From: a virus
Taxonomy: Duplodnaviria; Caudoviricetes
Length of the DNA stretch: 64,000 nt
Virus record (IMG/VR): IMGVR_UViG_3300027759_000044
Reading direction: 5' to 3' (one strand)
Shown one piece after another: positions 26,958-55,411 of the stretch. The translations under genes and the position numbers were made by a program. Under the pieces are notes generated by a model that saw only the letters and a program-made list of their open reading frames with translations, searched no databases and was not told where the DNA came from. Position 1 is the stretch's first letter; the number at the start of each line of letters is the position of its first letter.

Positions 26958-27047
26958 ATGAACGGTGAACTAATTTATGATATAGTATGTGGAATTGTAG
27001 TAGTTACTGCAATCATTGTTGTAGTGTGTTATCTAATTTTAAAATAA
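26958..27047 (+). CDS. small single-TM peptide (29 aa) missing from the ORF track
   Basis: MNGELIYDIVCGIVVVTAIIVVVCYLILK; fills the intergenic gap. Confidence 0.45.
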   Translation: MNGELIYDIVCGIVVVTAIIVVVCYLILK

Positions 27048-27061
27048 ACTAGGAGAAAAAA

Positions 27062-27682
27062 ATGAGTGAAGAAATAAAAGACGTAAATGCAAAGGTTGAT
27101 GAACTAGAAGCAGCCGCAAAAAAATACGCAAGCAAGGATACGGTAATCAGTATTGGTGGATATGAGTTTACACCCGCCAAACTAATGGTAGCATTTACTA
27201 TCGTATCATCTATACTGGGTGGACTTTATGGTTCATTTGAAGTGTACAAAGACTATGTGGGTATGAAGAAAAAGATAGCTGAATACTCTGCACCAGACTT
27301 ATCTGGATTTGATAAGCGTTTAGCAGTTATTGAAGAAAATAGTCAAAAGGGTGCTGATTACACACGTGATATCAAAACCGATTTAAAGAACGATATTCGC
27401 CGTAACGAAACTGTAACTGAACAAGTAGAACGTAGTGTTAAGAATGCCCAACGTGAAACTGAGTCAGAAATGCGTGATATGCGTAAAGCTGTGCGTGAAG
27501 ACTTGGAAAGAGCTAGAAACGAAGCTAACGCAATTCGCAAGGATATGGAATCAACCCGTAAAGAAATTAACAGTGAATTTACTGCGGCACGTAGAGAAAT
27601 CAACCGTGAAGTAGAGACACTAAAGAGAGAAGTTGATAGCAAAATACAAAAAGCTATGGACAATCCTTTAGCTAACAAATAA
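27062..27682 (+). CDS. single-TM coiled-coil protein
   Basis: GGAG SD; TM segment LMVAFTIVSSILGGLYGSF followed by a long charged heptad region. Confidence 0.7.
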   Translation: MSEEIKDVNAKVDELEAAAKKYASKDTVISIGGYEFTPAKLMVAFTIVSSILGGLYGSFEVYKDYVGMKKKIAEYSAPDLSGFDKRLAVIEENSQKGADYTRDIKTDLKNDIRRNETVTEQVERSVKNAQRETESEMRDMRKAVREDLERARNEANAIRKDMESTRKEINSEFTAARREINREVETLKREVDSKIQKAMDNPLANK

Positions 27683-27684
27683 GA

Positions 27685-27719
27685 TTGTCACTAATTTGTC
27701 ACATATCTCTCAATAAATA
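27685..27719 (+). promoter_or_regulatory. Pho-box-like direct repeat plus TAAATA late element
   Basis: TTGTCAC-TAAT-TTGTCAC (27685-27702), 11-nt gap, TAAATA (27714-27719). Confidence 0.75.
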
Positions 27720-27723
27720 CTAT

Positions 27724-28566
27724 ATGAAAACATATCGTTCTATTTTTGTGAGTGATGTACATTTAGGTACCAAAGATAGTCAGGCTGATAAGTTAAATAA
27801 CTTTTTAAAACACAATACATGTGATACACTTTATCTAGTAGGTGATATTATTGATGCATGGCGTATACAGCAAAACAAGTGGCGCTGGAAACAAAGCCAT
27901 ACCAATGTAGTACGTAGAGTGTTAGGCCATGCTAAACGTGGTACTAGAGTTGTTTATATCGCTGGCAATCACGATGAGTTTTTAAGACCTATGATTCCAT
28001 ATGATTTTAGTTTTGGTCTTATAGAAATTCATAATCAAATAGAACATATAGGTATAGATGGAAAGCATTATCTAGTCACACACGGTGATTTATTTGATGG
28101 AATTACACGGCTAGCACCTTGGCTAGCATTTTTAGGAGACAAAGCATATGATTTCATTTTATCGCTCAATAGTAAGTTCAATTGGATACGTCATCGTTTT
28201 GGTTTTGGGTACTTTAGTCTTAGCAAATACCTTAAACACAAAGTAAAAAAAGCCATAGATTTTATGTTTCAGTTTGAAAAGAATCTAGCTGGGTATTGTA
28301 AGAAGCGAGGATTTGATGGTGTAATATGTGGTCATATACACCATGCTGAAATAAAAACTATAGATGGTGTCATTTACATGAATGATGGTGACTGGGTTGA
28401 ATCTTGTACAGCACTAGTAGAACATCATGATGGACGTTGGGAAATAGTTACTTGGACTAGGGAGAAGGACAATGTGGGTATTAATAATTCTAGCAGTTCA
28501 CATGAACGACCCAAAGGACATACCGGGACGAGTGGAGTTGACATTTCAGGACAAACTCTCATGTGA
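27724..28566 (+). CDS. PlcP/LpxH2-type metallophosphoesterase (putative phospholipase C)
   Basis: SDVHLG, LVGDIID, GNHD, THGD, DGVICGHIH, NDGDWVESCTAL motifs; likely start is ATG 27724, not TTG 27685. Confidence 0.8.
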   Translation: MKTYRSIFVSDVHLGTKDSQADKLNNFLKHNTCDTLYLVGDIIDAWRIQQNKWRWKQSHTNVVRRVLGHAKRGTRVVYIAGNHDEFLRPMIPYDFSFGLIEIHNQIEHIGIDGKHYLVTHGDLFDGITRLAPWLAFLGDKAYDFILSLNSKFNWIRHRFGFGYFSLSKYLKHKVKKAIDFMFQFEKNLAGYCKKRGFDGVICGHIHHAEIKTIDGVIYMNDGDWVESCTALVEHHDGRWEIVTWTREKDNVGINNSSSSHERPKGHTGTSGVDISGQTLM

Positions 28567-28642
28567 ACAAAGTTTACAAAGTATGACATATTGGCTAAAG
28601 TTTAGTCAATTTAAAATTGAAGGAAAGTGTATAAAAAAATGA
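28472..28642 (+). CDS. overlapping 56-aa protein (hydrophobic N-terminus, two Cys) missing from the ORF track
   Basis: GGAG/AAGGA SD, MWVLIILAVHMNDPKDIPGRVELTFQDKLSCEQ...GKCIKK; its TGA overlaps the ATG of GT2. Confidence 0.55.
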   Translation: MWVLIILAVHMNDPKDIPGRVELTFQDKLSCEQSLQSMTYWLKFSQFKIEGKCIKK

Positions 28643-29349
28643 AACTCAGTGATAAAATTACTATTGTTGTACCTTGTAAGAATGAAGAAAATTATATTCA
28701 TTATTTGTTAGATTCGTTGCGTAGTCAAGATATTGGTGATACTAGAGTTATCATTGCTGACTGTTCTACTGATAATACTAGACAAGTCATTAACGATAAC
28801 AGTGATTCATTGAATATTGAAATCATTGAGGGTGGTCCTGTTTCTATTGCTAAGAATAACGGAGCACGATTAGTTACTACTCCTTATATACTATTCATTG
28901 ATGCTGATGTTCGTTTCTTTAAAAATAATGTCATTTATGATGCTGTTAATAAAATTGACTCTATGAATTTGGATCTTGTTGGATTGAATATCAAATGTTA
29001 TGACAAAGACCCAAGAGCAATGCTCGGTTTCACTCTTTTTAATACAATAAACAACACATTGAAATATTTTTCACCCTTTGCAGTTGGAGCATTTATGCTA
29101 ACTCGTAAAGATAAGTTTATAGAATACGGTGGATTCCCCGAACAGTTCTCAACTTCCGAAGATTATTTTTTGTCAAGGAAATATAGCCCTAAAAAGTTCA
29201 GAATTGTTAAACATCACTTTGGTCAAGATAGTCGTAGATTTAAAAAGATGGGATATCTTGGTATGGGTAAATATTTAATAAAAAATTTTGTTAATCGCAA
29301 TAATAAAAAATACTGGGATAGTTTAGACTCATCTAAATATTGGTCGTGA
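28639..29349 (+). CDS. GT2 family glycosyltransferase
   Basis: ITIVVPCKNEE, IIADCST, NNGA, LFIDADV (DxD), GGFPE, EDY. Confidence 0.85.
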   Translation: MKLSDKITIVVPCKNEENYIHYLLDSLRSQDIGDTRVIIADCSTDNTRQVINDNSDSLNIEIIEGGPVSIAKNNGARLVTTPYILFIDADVRFFKNNVIYDAVNKIDSMNLDLVGLNIKCYDKDPRAMLGFTLFNTINNTLKYFSPFAVGAFMLTRKDKFIEYGGFPEQFSTSEDYFLSRKYSPKKFRIVKHHFGQDSRRFKKMGYLGMGKYLIKNFVNRNNKKYWDSLDSSKYWS

Positions 29350-29350
29350 T

Positions 29351-29385
29351 TTGTAACATCACTGTCACACAATATCTATTAAATA
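29351..29385 (+). promoter_or_regulatory. Pho-box-like direct repeat plus TAAATA late element
   Basis: TTGTAAC-ATCA-CTGTCAC (29351-29368), 11-nt gap, TAAATA (29380-29385). Confidence 0.72.
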
Positions 29386-29432
29386 ATTATGTGCCATGGT
29401 GGCACACAAACTAACCCCACAAGGAGAAACCC

Positions 29433-30080
29433 ATGAGATTAGAAGATTTAGCCGCAAGATTAGTAGCTGTAGAAGCCAAATTAGCAAACCTAACTGGTAC
29501 AACAGTTAATACAGACAGTGCCACAAGCATTGAAGAACTAGACGCAAGACTTTCTGTAGTTGAAGTTCAGGTTGACCAATTAATCATTGAGAAAACAGAA
29601 GCTCACATTGGCGCTATTGTTGCCGCAGTAGCAAATGACGCACCAGTTGACGTAGCAGAAGTAGTTGCATTGTCATCAAGCGTATTCCATGAAGAAGCCG
29701 CTAGCATCGTTACTGATGTTGTTACAGCACAAACTGAAGCTGATCCAATTGTTCATACTGAAGTTGCTGATATTGTTTCAGCCGCTGTCATGGCAGTTGT
29801 TACAGCAGATCCAGAAGTTGTTATTGATCCAGTCGCAATCACAGAAGCTATCATGCAAGCAGTTGCTGATATGCCAGCCCCGACTCCAGAAGTAGCTCAA
29901 CAAGTTGCTGATGCAGTTGCGGAAGTTATCGCTACAGCTACAGGTGTTGAAGCAGTTGCCCCAGAAGTAACACAACAAATTGTGGAAGCAATCGCTACTC
30001 CTGCAGATCCTGCATTAGATGCAATTGAAGCACGTTTGAATATTGCTGAAGCAAAAGTTGATTTCTTGTTGGGAAAGTAA
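29433..30080 (+). CDS. acidic Ala/Val-rich coiled-coil protein of unknown function
   Basis: AAGGAG SD; three (L/I)xARLxxxExx(L/V) motifs; no Cys, Trp or Tyr. Confidence 0.75.
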   Translation: MRLEDLAARLVAVEAKLANLTGTTVNTDSATSIEELDARLSVVEVQVDQLIIEKTEAHIGAIVAAVANDAPVDVAEVVALSSSVFHEEAASIVTDVVTAQTEADPIVHTEVADIVSAAVMAVVTADPEVVIDPVAITEAIMQAVADMPAPTPEVAQQVADAVAEVIATATGVEAVAPEVTQQIVEAIATPADPALDAIEARLNIAEAKVDFLLGK

Positions 30081-30162
30081 TAATTAGTATTAAACGTTGG
30101 TTTTTTACTCTTTTTAAATCGGACACAAAATAGCGTGTCGCTGGATTTGCGTAACCAGTACT

Positions 30163-30186
30163 AAGGGCCCTATAGGGCTCTTTTTT
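30163..30186 (+). terminator. intrinsic terminator
   Basis: AAGGGCCC-TATA-GGGCTCTT followed by a T run. Confidence 0.75.
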
Positions 30187-30195
30187 ATTGGATAA

Positions 30196-30230
30196 TAGTA
30201 AAACAATTGTCATATTGCCTAGCATAAATA
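30196..30230 (+). promoter_or_regulatory. degenerate Pho-box-like repeat plus TAAATA late element
   Basis: TAGTAAA-ACAA-TTGTCAT (30196-30213), 11-nt gap, TAAATA (30225-30230). Confidence 0.6.
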
Positions 30231-30237
30231 CAGTACT

Positions 30238-31056
30238 ATGAAAAAACTACTACTATTATTATTCGTACTGATTAGTTCAGTTGTCCACGCACAATTACCA
30301 ACTAGTACTGTACCACTACCCGCTGATATTGCCGCAATTAAGAAAGCAAATGTTCTTATTGTGGCAATGACCAAAAAAGATAACCCTCCCTTCTTCAGTG
30401 GTGGCGAGGATGATATCAAAGGTCTTGACGTTGAAATTGCACGAAGAATAGGCGTAATGCTTGGAGTTCCTGTAAAATTTAGACGAGATGCCGAAAGTTT
30501 TGCTGAGGTTGTTGAACAAGTACGAGACGGGCGAGCAGATGTTGCAGTAAGTAAATTATCTGTCACAGCCCCTAGACTACAGGTTGTTAGATTCAGTGAT
30601 CCATATATTAAACTAAGACAAAGTTTAGTTATCAATCGTTTATGGTTAAGTCAAAACAGTCAAGGTAAAGAAACATATCAAGTCATTAGAGATTTTAACG
30701 GTAAGATAAGTTTTATTCGTAACTCAAGCTATGATACATTTGCCCGTATTAATTTCCCTAATGCTGTATTTCTTCCAGAAGATAAGTGGGACGTAATTAT
30801 CGATAAAGTTACACGTGGTGATATCGCAGCCGCTTATCGTGATGAATTTGAGATTAAGAAAATTGCTTTTGAAAAGCCAGATGCGGCAATCACAACAAAA
30901 AGTATTACAATCTCTGATAGCGTGGATAATATTGCTGTAGCAGTCAATCCTAAATCACTACAATTGTTAAGCATTATTAATTACGTTATTAAAAATGAAT
31001 ACAACAACATTGACACTAAAAAGTTAATGGATCGCTACAAAGCTGAAAAGAAATAA
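30238..31056 (+). CDS. periplasmic amino-acid-binding protein (SBP family 3)
   Basis: Signal peptide, PPFF...GLDVEIA, GRADVAVS..S.T..R motifs. Confidence 0.85.
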   Translation: MKKLLLLLFVLISSVVHAQLPTSTVPLPADIAAIKKANVLIVAMTKKDNPPFFSGGEDDIKGLDVEIARRIGVMLGVPVKFRRDAESFAEVVEQVRDGRADVAVSKLSVTAPRLQVVRFSDPYIKLRQSLVINRLWLSQNSQGKETYQVIRDFNGKISFIRNSSYDTFARINFPNAVFLPEDKWDVIIDKVTRGDIAAAYRDEFEIKKIAFEKPDAAITTKSITISDSVDNIAVAVNPKSLQLLSIINYVIKNEYNNIDTKKLMDRYKAEKK

Positions 31057-31065
31057 GGACCTAGT

Positions 31066-32343
31066 ATGACAACCGCACATTTAAAATCGTTTTTAACAAG
31101 CCCGTGGACCATACTTGGTTCTATTATAGTGGGCGTACTGAGCGGCGTTTACGCACCTGAGTTCAGCATAAACTTTGACAGTATTGGTAGTATCTATATC
31201 AGCTTACTTAAAGTTGTTGTTCTTCCATTCTTATTAGCAACTATATTAGTTGGTATAATTGGCTTACTACAAAAAGAAGGTAGTCAACAACTAATTCGTA
31301 AAATCATTATTGGTTTTGTGTCTAGTATGTTCTTAGCCGCAATCATTGGTGTTGGTACAGTTCTTGTTACAGGAACTGAAATGACTCCTGAAAAGAAAAC
31401 ACAACTTGGTGTACTAGTTAATACTAAGGATAGTGGAACTGATTTGAACATCACTCTTAAAGAACCAATGCCTATAGCACCAGAAGTTAGTGCTGGTAAA
31501 ATGGCAGAGAAGTTTATTCCAGAGAATATTTTTAATACACTAAACAATGGTGAAAGTTTGAAGATTGTTATATTCTGTTTAATCTTTGGTGTTGCCCTTG
31601 GTCATCTACAAACTGAAGGTCAAAAGATGTTGGTTGAAGTACTTAAAAGCATTCAACAAGCAAGTATCAGCATCTTTAAGTTCTTAAACTACTTCTTACC
31701 AATAGCATTGTTAGCAATGATTGCCGCTCAAGTTGGTAAAGTAGGTGTAGGTATATTCTTAACTATGTTTGACTTTGTGTTCCAGCAATTCATTGGTGGA
31801 CTATTAGTAGTTGCCGCAGGTACTGCTATGATTTGGTGGAGGTCTGGATTAAGTCTCTCCACTGTTATCAAAGAAACTAAAGAAACATTGATTGTTGCTG
31901 TTAGTTCACGTAGCTCTTTAGCTTGCATCCCATACGCACAAGAAGCATTACATAAACTACACTTTGACAAAGGTGGAGTTGAATTAACAGTTCCGTTAAG
32001 CTTTACAGTTAATCGTATTGGTAGTATTGTTTATTATGCTATTGCTACAGTATTCATTGCTAACATTTATGATGCACCACTAGGCTTAACAGGACTAGCA
32101 GTTGTATTGTTTGGTAGTATCTTAGCAGGACTAGCAAGTGCAGGTACAACAGGTATCCTTACAGTCGCTACAGTGGCAGTTGTGTGTGATTTGTTGAAAT
32201 TACCAAGCGAAGCTGTATTAGTATTACTAATCGCAGTTGATCCATTAATGGATATGATTCGCACAGCAAGTCATGTACACGGCAATGTAGCAGTAACAGC
32301 ATTTGTCTGCGACAAAGAGGTAGTTACTGGTGGACAAACTTAA
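31066..32343 (+). CDS. dicarboxylate/amino acid:cation symporter (DAACS, GltP-like)
   Basis: Multi-TM protein; LLKVVVLP, FIPENIF, SSRSS serine motif, PLSFTVN, IAVDPLMDMIRT. Confidence 0.88.
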   Translation: MTTAHLKSFLTSPWTILGSIIVGVLSGVYAPEFSINFDSIGSIYISLLKVVVLPFLLATILVGIIGLLQKEGSQQLIRKIIIGFVSSMFLAAIIGVGTVLVTGTEMTPEKKTQLGVLVNTKDSGTDLNITLKEPMPIAPEVSAGKMAEKFIPENIFNTLNNGESLKIVIFCLIFGVALGHLQTEGQKMLVEVLKSIQQASISIFKFLNYFLPIALLAMIAAQVGKVGVGIFLTMFDFVFQQFIGGLLVVAAGTAMIWWRSGLSLSTVIKETKETLIVAVSSRSSLACIPYAQEALHKLHFDKGGVELTVPLSFTVNRIGSIVYYAIATVFIANIYDAPLGLTGLAVVLFGSILAGLASAGTTGILTVATVAVVCDLLKLPSEAVLVLLIAVDPLMDMIRTASHVHGNVAVTAFVCDKEVVTGGQT

Positions 32344-42404: not shown

Positions 42405-42433
42405 TTGACAATAATTGGATTTGGGTATATAAT
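42405..42433 (+). promoter_or_regulatory. sigma70-type early promoter
   Basis: TTGACA-17 nt-TATAAT (perfect consensus). Confidence 0.8.
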
Positions 42434-42722: not shown

Positions 42723-42751
42723 TTGACAATAAATCCAATTAGTGATACAAT
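42723..42751 (+). promoter_or_regulatory. sigma70-type early promoter
   Basis: TTGACA-17 nt-TACAAT. Confidence 0.75.
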
Positions 42752-42825: not shown

Positions 42826-42854
42826 TTGACAATAAATCAGTTTTATACTATACT
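42826..42854 (+). promoter_or_regulatory. sigma70-type early promoter
   Basis: TTGACA-17 nt-TATACT; shares CAAAATTTGACAATAAATC with 42717-42735. Confidence 0.75.
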
Positions 42855-42888: not shown

Positions 42889-43989
42889 ATGGCATCAGTA
42901 TCAGACAATCTCACTATCACTAGTGTACAAACTCGCAAGGCAATGCTTAAAGCATTCAAAGCGAAACGCCCGCTTTTCTTGTGGGGCCCGCCCGGTATCG
43001 GTAAATCAGAAGTTGTAGCAGAAGTTACTGAAGAACTAGGTGGCTTTATGATTGACTTGCGTATGGCACAAATGGAGCCTACAGATATTCGCGGTATCCC
43101 ATTCTTTAATAAAGATATTAATAAAATGGACTGGGCGGCACCTGTTGACTTGCCTGACGAGGACCTAGCAAGTCAGTACCCGATCGTTGTTCTATTCTTA
43201 GATGAAATGAATTCAGCAAGTCCCGCAGTACAAGCGGCCGGCTATCAGTTGATTTTGAATCGTAGAGTTGGTAAGTATAAGTTACCTGACAATGTTGTTA
43301 TCGTTGCGGCAGGCAATCGTGACTCTGACAAAGGTGTTACATATCGTATGCCAATGCCCCTCGCTAATCGTTTCTTACACTTAGAAATGAGAGCAGATTT
43401 TACATCATGGCAGAATTGGGCTGTTAACAAAGGTATTCACAAAGACGTTGTGGGTTACTTGTCATTTGCTAAACAAGATTTGTACGATTTTGATGCTAAA
43501 TCGTCAAGTAGAGCATTCGCTACACCTCGCACATGGTGTTTCGTTAGTGATTTGTTGAATGATGAAAACGATACAGATAGCGATACATTGTTCAATTTGA
43601 TTTCAGGTGCTGTTGGTGAAGGTCTTGCTGTTAAGTTTGCGGCACATCGTAAAGTAGCAGGTCGTATGCCCGAACCCTCAGATATTTTGTCAGGTAAAGT
43701 TAAGGACCTCGCAGTTAAAGAAATTTCTGCTATGTACTCACTTACAATTTCAATGTGTTATGAATTGCGTGATGCACTAGAGACAAAGAAAGTTTCTAGT
43801 AAAGAGTTCCACACAATGGCTGATAATTTCTTCAGTTACATTATGGCAAACTTTGAGACTGAACTAGTTGTTATGGGTGCCAAGATTGCGCTTAAGACAT
43901 ACAAGTTACCAATTGAACCTAGTCAGTTGAAGAACTTTGATGACTTTCATAAGAAATACGGCAAGTACATTGTAGACGCAGGTAATTAA
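42889..43989 (+). CDS. MoxR-like AAA+ ATPase
   Basis: Walker A GPPGIGKS, Walker B LFLDE, AAGNR, PLANRF. Confidence 0.88.
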   Translation: MASVSDNLTITSVQTRKAMLKAFKAKRPLFLWGPPGIGKSEVVAEVTEELGGFMIDLRMAQMEPTDIRGIPFFNKDINKMDWAAPVDLPDEDLASQYPIVVLFLDEMNSASPAVQAAGYQLILNRRVGKYKLPDNVVIVAAGNRDSDKGVTYRMPMPLANRFLHLEMRADFTSWQNWAVNKGIHKDVVGYLSFAKQDLYDFDAKSSSRAFATPRTWCFVSDLLNDENDTDSDTLFNLISGAVGEGLAVKFAAHRKVAGRMPEPSDILSGKVKDLAVKEISAMYSLTISMCYELRDALETKKVSSKEFHTMADNFFSYIMANFETELVVMGAKIALKTYKLPIEPSQLKNFDDFHKKYGKYIVDAGN

Positions 43990-55403: not shown

Positions 55404-55411
55404 TATAAATA
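55404..55411 (+). promoter_or_regulatory. T4-type late promoter
   Basis: TATAAATA 6 nt before the terminase ATG. Confidence 0.7.

Follow-up and report, generated by a model that had tools for sequence, protein, structure and literature searches.

A stretch of 64,000 nucleotides from a virus of the Caudoviricetes (IMG/VR record IMGVR_UViG_3300027759_000044), the whole of which is called the window here, was found to carry three composite elements in which a box of the type bound by the phosphate-starvation regulator PhoB (Pho box), or a degenerate form of it, is followed by the hexamer TAAATA (Table 1). A Pho box is defined by two 7-bp direct repeats (as cited in PMC4971064), and all three boxes consisted of two such repeats with an 11-bp period and a 4-bp A/T-rich spacer. 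The original prediction, made from the letters of this DNA, had described three repeats each ending 11 nt before TAAATA, and its coordinates and sequences were confirmed. Site 1 precedes a gene for a PlcP-like metallophosphoesterase (plcP), a small open reading frame (ORF) and a gene for a family-2 glycosyltransferase (GT2); site 2 precedes an ORF rich in alanine; and site 3 precedes genes for a solute-binding protein (SBP) and a transporter. The large terminase shared 48–50% identity with its counterparts in PA5oct, Phosso and Atu_ph07, jumbo phages related to T4. The 64-kb window is part of a T4-superfamily jumbo phage from freshwater.

Table 1. Features of the locus, with positions in the window; bits are scores with a position weight matrix (PWM) of host Pho boxes
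Feature	Position	Strand	Evidence and remarks
Site 1 Pho box, TTGTCAC-TAAT-TTGTCAC	27685..27702	+	Sequence; 21.9 bits; kept 5′ of plcP in relatives
TAAATA late-type core, site 1	27714..27719	+	11 nt past box; 4 nt to plcP ATG, leaderless geometry
PlcP-like metallophosphoesterase	27724..28566	+	Pfam Metallophos, 3.8e-11; candidate phospholipase C, phospholipid breakdown
Conserved 56-aa ORF	28472..28642	+	Overlaps plcP end; stop overlaps GT2 start (ATGA); in most of 80 relatives
Family-2 glycosyltransferase (GT2)	28639..29349	+	Pfam Glycos_transf_2, 4.6e-21; candidate glycolipid synthase partner of PlcP
Site 2 Pho box, TTGTAAC-ATCA-CTGTCAC	29351..29368	+	Sequence; 16.0 bits; kept 5′ of Ala-rich ORF homologues
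TAAATA core, site 2	29380..29385	+	11 nt past box
Stem-loop GTGCCA-TGG-TGGCAC	29391..29405	+	Starts at predicted +1 of site 2 transcript
Ala/Val/Glu-rich 215-aa ORF	29433..30080	+	Virus-only family; site 2 upstream
Two-hairpin RNA element, GGACAC..GTGTC + GCTGG..CCAG	30122..30159	+	After Ala-rich ORF; conserved
Intrinsic-terminator-like hairpin and T-run	30163..30190	+	Sequence
Site 3 degenerate box, TAGTAAA-ACAA-TTGTCAT	30196..30213	+	2.5 bits; single good half-site
TAAATA core, site 3	30225..30230	+	11 nt past box; 7 nt to ATG
Family-3 solute-binding protein with signal peptide	30238..31056	+	Pfam SBP_bac_3, 3.5e-18; site 3 upstream
Sodium:dicarboxylate symporter family transporter	31066..32343	+	Pfam SDF, 1.3e-66

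With the relaxed composite pattern GTMA-N7-GTMA-N12-TAAATA, three matches were obtained in the window, all on the plus strand and all immediately 5′ of gene starts. The expected number was 0.007 per window (mean of 300 dinucleotide-preserving shuffles), and no shuffle gave three. When the distance between box and TAAATA was changed to other values from 5 to 20 nt, no composite was found in the window or in a complete relative from IMG/VR (G001; 348,701 bp, CheckV 100%), which was analysed whole and showed 83–96% identity across most of the window. The enrichment at the 11-nt offset, proposed earlier as a check, was therefore observed. The remaining TAAATA copies of the window, five of which (534, 17571, 35759, 55406 and 56977) had been described as free of such repeats, showed no box at the 11-nt offset, the next PWM scores there being below −8 bits.

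The PWM was built from 65 pstS boxes of Comamonadaceae only, with the phage sites excluded from training. It was found that site 1 was the best match of the window on either strand (21.9 bits; host median 22.3) and that site 2 was the second best (16.0 bits; host boxes 14.8–26.4). Over the 349 kb of the complete relative, the orthologues of these two sites were the sole matches above 12.3 bits. Sites 1 and 2 are thus strong PhoB boxes by their sequence and are predicted to be PhoB operators, as originally proposed. The proposal did not hold for site 3, which scored 2.5 bits, below the host range. The second half-site of site 3 reads TTGACAT in the complete relative, and its box is missing in two other relatives (L012 and L073), where TAAATA alone is retained. 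The PstS proteins encoded by relatives of the phage shared 75–80% identity with those of Limnohabitans and further Comamonadaceae, which points to a host origin of the phage pstS, and the host probably belongs to the Comamonadaceae and resembles Limnohabitans.

The window phosphoesterase has at least 596 relatives in IMG/VR, and the conservation counts were taken from the best 80 of these loci. The search was made with the box alone, TAAATA not being required. It yielded 55 distinct boxes, 53 of which were on the gene strand. TAAATA stood exactly 11 nt past the box in 46 of the 55, with a spacer of variable sequence; the others were mostly additional upstream repeats or boxes with a 21-nt spacing. 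The 21-nt spacings (L029:3597, L042:3937 and L039:3952) amount to one helical turn more, which would be consistent with face-of-helix dependence. Sites 1 and 2 were kept with the exact 11-nt spacing in many relatives, in line with the conservation that had been anticipated, but the box of site 3 was conserved in the closest relative only.

Composites were observed to head the plcP–GT2 genes, the Ala-rich ORF and, in many relatives, pstS (392 bits with the NCBIfam PstS equivalog, cut-off 339). Five further genomes of 250–525 kb, four of them 95–100% complete by CheckV and one 67%, contained one or two strict composites each, and a reversed-pattern control gave none. In one of these genomes (G007), an extra composite lay 5′ of the homologue of the Ala-rich ORF, ∼100 kb from plcP, and in another (G010) one lay 5′ of pstS, ∼170 kb from plcP. 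Because the operator accompanies the three gene families wherever they are located, 100–170 kb apart, it bears the signature of a regulon, and a small phage phosphate-starvation (Pho) regulon is well supported at the sequence level. A general class of middle or late phage promoters was also considered and rejected, since there were just one or two composites per genome. The strict box alone occurred four times in the complete relative, equal to the reversed-pattern control. In some relatives (L037:3847-3952 and L018:2920-3000), a second composite was noticed ∼105 nt 5′ of the plcP composite. Behind it come a short segment rich in hairpins and then a hairpin resembling a terminator, and the arrangement is a candidate Pho-regulated small RNA or tiny ORF.

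In the complete relative, 97 of 466 TAAATA copies were located within the 40 nt 5′ of ORFs, which cover 1.9% of positions. In the window, TAAATA stands before the terminase and virion-protein genes, and it is depleted overall (72 copies vs ∼131 expected), as is typical of a signal sequence. No conserved element was found further upstream of the ordinary TAAATA promoters of the complete relative. By these sequence features, TAAATA serves the lineage as the core of its late promoters in general, in agreement with the original assignment as a late-type element. The distances from TAAATA to ATG of the 97 TAAATA-preceded ORFs were bimodal, with 4–5 nt (leaderless) and ∼18–22 nt. The 4–5 nt class was the commonest (∼27 of 97; window examples at 55406, 56977 and 50934), so that many late mRNAs should be leaderless, and the distance at site 1 is typical of the leaderless late genes of the phage. 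The base before TAAATA was A in 18 of 55 composite sites vs 51 of 82 ordinary TAAATA promoters of the complete relative.

A gp55-type sigma factor was also identified in the complete relative (phrog_12791 at 1.6e-70, T4 gp55 at 2.2e-5), and its gene adjoins a gp47 homologue, as in T4. The protein (L190:931-1839) has 303 residues, of which only ∼190–291 aligned to T4 gp55. The N-terminal ∼190 residues matched no Pfam or NCBIfam family, and a gp33-like domain in this part was rejected, as BLASTP showed no similarity to gp33. A search for T4 gp45 in the same genome gave no match and is uninformative, as the protein is probably too diverged.

We propose, with a probability of roughly 0.6, that the composites are Pho-box/gp55-late promoters forming a regulon under host PhoB, where PhoB binding, dependence on inorganic phosphate (Pi) and use of the late sigma are deduced from the DNA. 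In a P-starved host, a dimer of phosphorylated PhoB would bind the box at about −40 to −23 and would help RNA polymerase with the phage late sigma, reading TAAATA at −11 to −6, to initiate. The expression of the phage Pho genes would then follow the Pi status of the host. The regulon would consist of plcP, the small ORF and GT2 together with the Ala-rich ORF in the window, and relatives would add pstS.

The arrangement of the composites differs from that of host promoters. In 74 distinct bacterial pstS promoters, yTG(T/A)CAC-N4-yyGTCAY was followed after exactly 10 nt by TAnAGT. The hexamer, which was outside the search pattern, had T1 in 73/74, A2 in 73/74 and T6 in 74/74, a uniformity explained in part by shared ancestry, as the promoters come from related genomes. 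E. coli phoA has the same layout (box, 10 nt, TATAGT). In place of the variable TAnAGT at 10 nt, the phage has a nearly invariant TAAATA at 11 nt. Read in the 11-nt register, this element has A in place of T6; read in the 10-nt register, it has T in place of A2. The sigma70 invariants are thus never both kept, and the base after TAAATA was not a conserved T among relatives. A sigma70 promoter TTGTCA-N16-TAnnnT, which fits sites 1 and 3 by eye, was rejected because the final T was present in 9 of the 55 boxes. The T4 late box TATAAATA begins at −13 (PMC2988020), which places TAAATA at −11 to −6, the sigma70 hexamer being at −12 to −7. With the one extra spacer nucleotide, the box edge is therefore at −23 in phage and host layouts alike, a position similar to the −25 to −41 given for PhoB at the E. 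coli pstS promoter (PMC10570014). The changed −10 region and the 1-nt shift suggest that selection may have kept the position of PhoB relative to the polymerase, and the gp55 holoenzyme is a plausible reader of the composites, favoured by their sequence.

The explanation that competes best with joint action, although we regard it as unlikely, is that each promoter is used twice, by PhoB with host sigma70 early and by the gp55 polymerase late, independently and never jointly. Early transcription would then be Pi-dependent, the poor −10 used by sigma70 being TAAATA or a hexamer that overlaps it. Activation by PhoB is known only through sigma70 region 4, genes for Pi acquisition would be most useful early in infection, weak −10 elements are frequent at activator-dependent promoters, and the TTGACA-N17-TATACT early promoters of the phage imply that the sigma70 holoenzyme is used in infection. 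These points are countered by the layout above, in which the phage element keeps the host A2 and T6 together in neither register, has no conserved T behind it and is nearly invariant where the host hexamer varies; moreover, the exact 11-nt spacing would need upkeep by a poor sigma70 fit alone.

As to the binder of the box, no Trans_reg_C or Response_reg domain was found in the complete relative, and a phage-encoded PhoB-like regulator was rejected on this ground. As that genome is without an OmpR/PhoB-type winged helix-turn-helix (wHTH) or receiver domain, the binder would most simply be host PhoB; the presence of just one or two composites per genome likewise favours a host factor over a general class of phage promoters. 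It is improbable that a different host regulator of the OmpR family, or an unrecognised phage protein, binds instead and that the likeness to Pho boxes is convergent. Such a binder would fit the direct repeats of 10–11 bp period, which are common to the whole OmpR/PhoB family, and the TGTAAY half-sites of most relatives, which occur in none of the 74 host pstS boxes; the half-site type also tends to be common to the sites of one phage, as in co-evolution with a cognate binder. However, sites 1 and 2 score inside the range of the host pstS boxes, the composite heads pstS in relatives, and both the missing wHTH and receiver domains and the low number of sites in genomes of 250–525 kb speak for a host factor. 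In addition, mixed TGTAAC/TGTCAC sites (window site 2, L012 and L057) suggest a single binder accepting A or C at that half-site position. It is hardly credible that the boxes are functionless relics captured with host pstS and plcP while TAAATA alone drives late transcription: although the phage pstS clearly came from the host and the box is directly followed, much as in host promoters, by A (often AATT), the boxes and the exact spacing were retained while spacer and flanks diverged, the boxes also precede the Ala-rich ORF, a virus-only gene without a counterpart in the host, and the −10 region was rebuilt with the box retained.

Within the proposed regulon of late-type promoters under host PhoB, a more tentative step is that phosphorylated PhoB acts directly on the gp55 polymerase and replaces the sliding-clamp/gp33 activator at these few promoters. 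If true, these would be a replication-independent, phosphate-gated class of late-type promoters, and PhoB would contact the core polymerase (beta flap/beta′) or the ∼190-residue N-terminal extension of the gp55 homologue. Several points weigh against the PhoB–gp55 proposal. PhoB is known to activate via sigma70 region 4 (PMC10570014), a region missing from gp55. In T4, the flap tip is taken up by gp33 and the upstream DNA by the gp45 clamp; a dimer of PhoB bound at −40 to −23 might collide with these factors instead of helping, and it would have to replace them. The TGTAAY half-sites of most relatives differ from the TG(T/A)CAY of 74/74 host pstS boxes, and binding of these variants by host PhoB is assumed. 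The gp55 homologue was located in the 83–96% identical relative and not within the 64-kb window, the host assignment is based on a single transferred gene, and site 3, a weak and degenerate half-box, is doubtful as a Pho box. The region-4 objection is softened by two precedents, as PhoB is required at promoters of the extracytoplasmic function (ECF) sigma VreI (PMC4971064) and PmrA, a member of the OmpR/PhoB family, touches the beta flap, beta′ and sigma region 4 (PMC10570014).

Concerning the cargo genes, the PlcP-like protein scored 45.6 and 33.6 bits with the LpxH equivalogs (cut-offs 134 and 190), and these profile scores indicated a calcineurin-type metallophosphoesterase distinct from LpxH. 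The 56-aa ORF overlaps plcP over its final 95 nt in a different frame, and its ATGA overlap with GT2 suggests a possible translational coupling. The trio of plcP, small ORF and GT2 was conserved among relatives. For the Ala-rich ORF, no match was found among Pfam, NCBIfam and PHROG families, and its atlas neighbours were exclusively viral hypothetical proteins. Limnohabitans-type homologues of the phage PlcP (51–53% identity) are encoded directly after olsB, a gene of ornithine-lipid synthesis. In the Limnohabitans-type loci (L185–L189), the gene after the plcP homologue was found to encode a GT4 glycosyltransferase in L185 and a polyphosphate kinase (ppk) in L186, and a canonical Pho box was present just 3′ of plcP in 5/5 loci, followed by TAGAAT in L187 and L189. 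The ppk adjoining the bacterial plcP homologue carries a Pho box upstream. PlcP operons for lipid renovation often have Pho boxes (PMC4796936), and the neighbourhood of olsB, GT4 and Pho-box-bearing ppk matches this known context. By these predicted enzymatic roles, plcP–GT2 is a candidate module replacing phospholipid by glycolipid. In the SAR11 myophage Pelagibacter phage Mosig (L001; MT647606.1 93031-94866), a phosphoesterase gene whose product is 49% identical divergently adjoins a pstS-like gene; TAAATA is located 5 nt before its ATG, with two CTTAAC repeats upstream.

Several RNA elements were recognised around the Ala-rich ORF. The stem at 29391–29405 was kept in relatives with a change from GTGCC/GGCAC to GTACC/GGTAC (read by eye), and a comparable GTGT..ACAC hairpin occupies the matching place in the pstS leaders of relatives. 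The stem-loop of the window begins at the predicted +1 and may serve as a 5′-end stabiliser. In an alignment of 15 copies of the two-hairpin element, 3 of its 10 pairs showed compensatory changes. In relatives, it was located after the stop codon of pstS or of the Ala-rich ORF, or as a 66-nt leader of plcP, and an Rfam scan of 27000–31000 returned only sub-threshold noise, leaving the element unmatched. Eight metatranscriptome runs of lakes or sediments, drawn from eight studies, contained parts of the Ala-rich ORF region, and seven of the runs were mapped onto the stretch; this evidence consists of assembled contigs, which carry neither start sites nor strand. Near-identical contigs from RNA libraries covered the Ala-rich ORF, the SBP gene and the two-hairpin element and lend weak support to transcription of this region. 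Among the seven mapped runs, no RNA contig covered 29251–29403, and one contig of a relative started at 29404.

Ordinary early promoters of the form TTGACA-N17-TATACT are also present in the phage. In the window, ATTTGACAATAA occurs three times on the plus strand (42406–42411, 42724–42729 and 42827–42832), and at least the last copy has a TATACT −10 after 17 nt. The three copies are located in a gap before an AAA-ATPase-like ORF (42889–43989) and two 84-aa ORFs, and judged by their sequence they are sigma70-type early promoters.

The composites share features with several known systems. As at classical PhoB–sigma70 promoters (E. coli phoA and pstS, Comamonadaceae pstS), the repeats replace the −35 element and the box edge is at about −23, but the classical promoters have 10 nt and TAnAGT or TATAGT, whereas the phage has 11 nt and TAAATA without the sigma70 invariants. 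MotA-dependent middle promoters of T4 combine a MotA box at −30 with a sigma70 −10, sigma being appropriated by AsiA. There too, an activator box stands in place of the −35 at a fixed spacing to a −10-like element. The MotA box, however, consists of one 9-bp element that a phage protein recognises at many promoters, whereas the composites have a direct repeat that matches host Pho boxes at one or two sites per genome. With the late promoters of T4 (gp55/gp33/gp45; TATAAATA at −13 to −6), the composites share a TAAATA core, which is predicted to lie one helical turn 5′ of the start, a gp55 homologue in the lineage and the same element before terminase and virion genes. The T4 promoters are activated by the sliding clamp and have no conserved upstream element (PMC2988020), in contrast to the operator at −40 to −23 of the composites, which show no conservation of the first two bases of the T4 octamer. 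PhoB is also needed together with a non-primary sigma in the case of the ECF sigma VreI of Pseudomonas aeruginosa (PMC4971064), but there the pho box is 5′ of a −35 and the sigma keeps region 4, which gp55 is without. The bacterial operons of PlcP and glycosyltransferase (PMC4796936) resemble the phage locus in the order of Pho box, PlcP-like gene and glycosyltransferase gene; the phage-encoded version differs in having a GT2 and not an Agt/GT4-type enzyme, its activity being a candidate one. No paper on plcP as a phage auxiliary metabolic gene was found in the literature searched, and neither the ‘moraphage’ jumbo-phage paper nor a metaHi-C preprint describes this lineage or its promoters.

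The closest parallel is provided by cyanophages, in which host PhoBR controls pstS and phoA of P-SSM2 and S-SM1 and genes of S-PM2d (PMC10976474), as the original prediction had stated for pstS. In both cases, a lytic T4-type phage carries host-type Pho boxes before its own genes, including pstS, and a two-component system of the host tunes phage expression to P stress, which for the present lineage is proposed. The phage of the window would thus appear to read the phosphate status of its host. The composite design recurs in at least 596 viral contigs of a freshwater lineage of jumbo phages, whose hosts are probably Betaproteobacteria abundant in lakes. It predicts that host Pi status would switch the uptake of phosphate and the renovation of membrane lipids driven by phages in lakes. 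It would also provide a system in which to ask whether a response regulator that ordinarily relies on sigma70 region 4 is able to activate a minimal phage sigma. That host PhoB controls phage genes is already established as a general idea, but so far it has been shown in marine cyanophages only, with loosely defined boxes. The cyanophage box is PyTTAAPyPy(T/A), and its predictions were called unreliable (PMC10976474), whereas the boxes of the window lineage, with a betaproteobacterial host and the form TGTCAY-N5-TGTCAY, are sharply defined and conserved, are fixed at one spacing to a late core and precede plcP–GT2 and a virus-only ORF. What is new compared with the cyanophages is the host group, the sharp and widely conserved operator, its nucleotide-precise fusion to a late core and the plcP–GT2 cargo.

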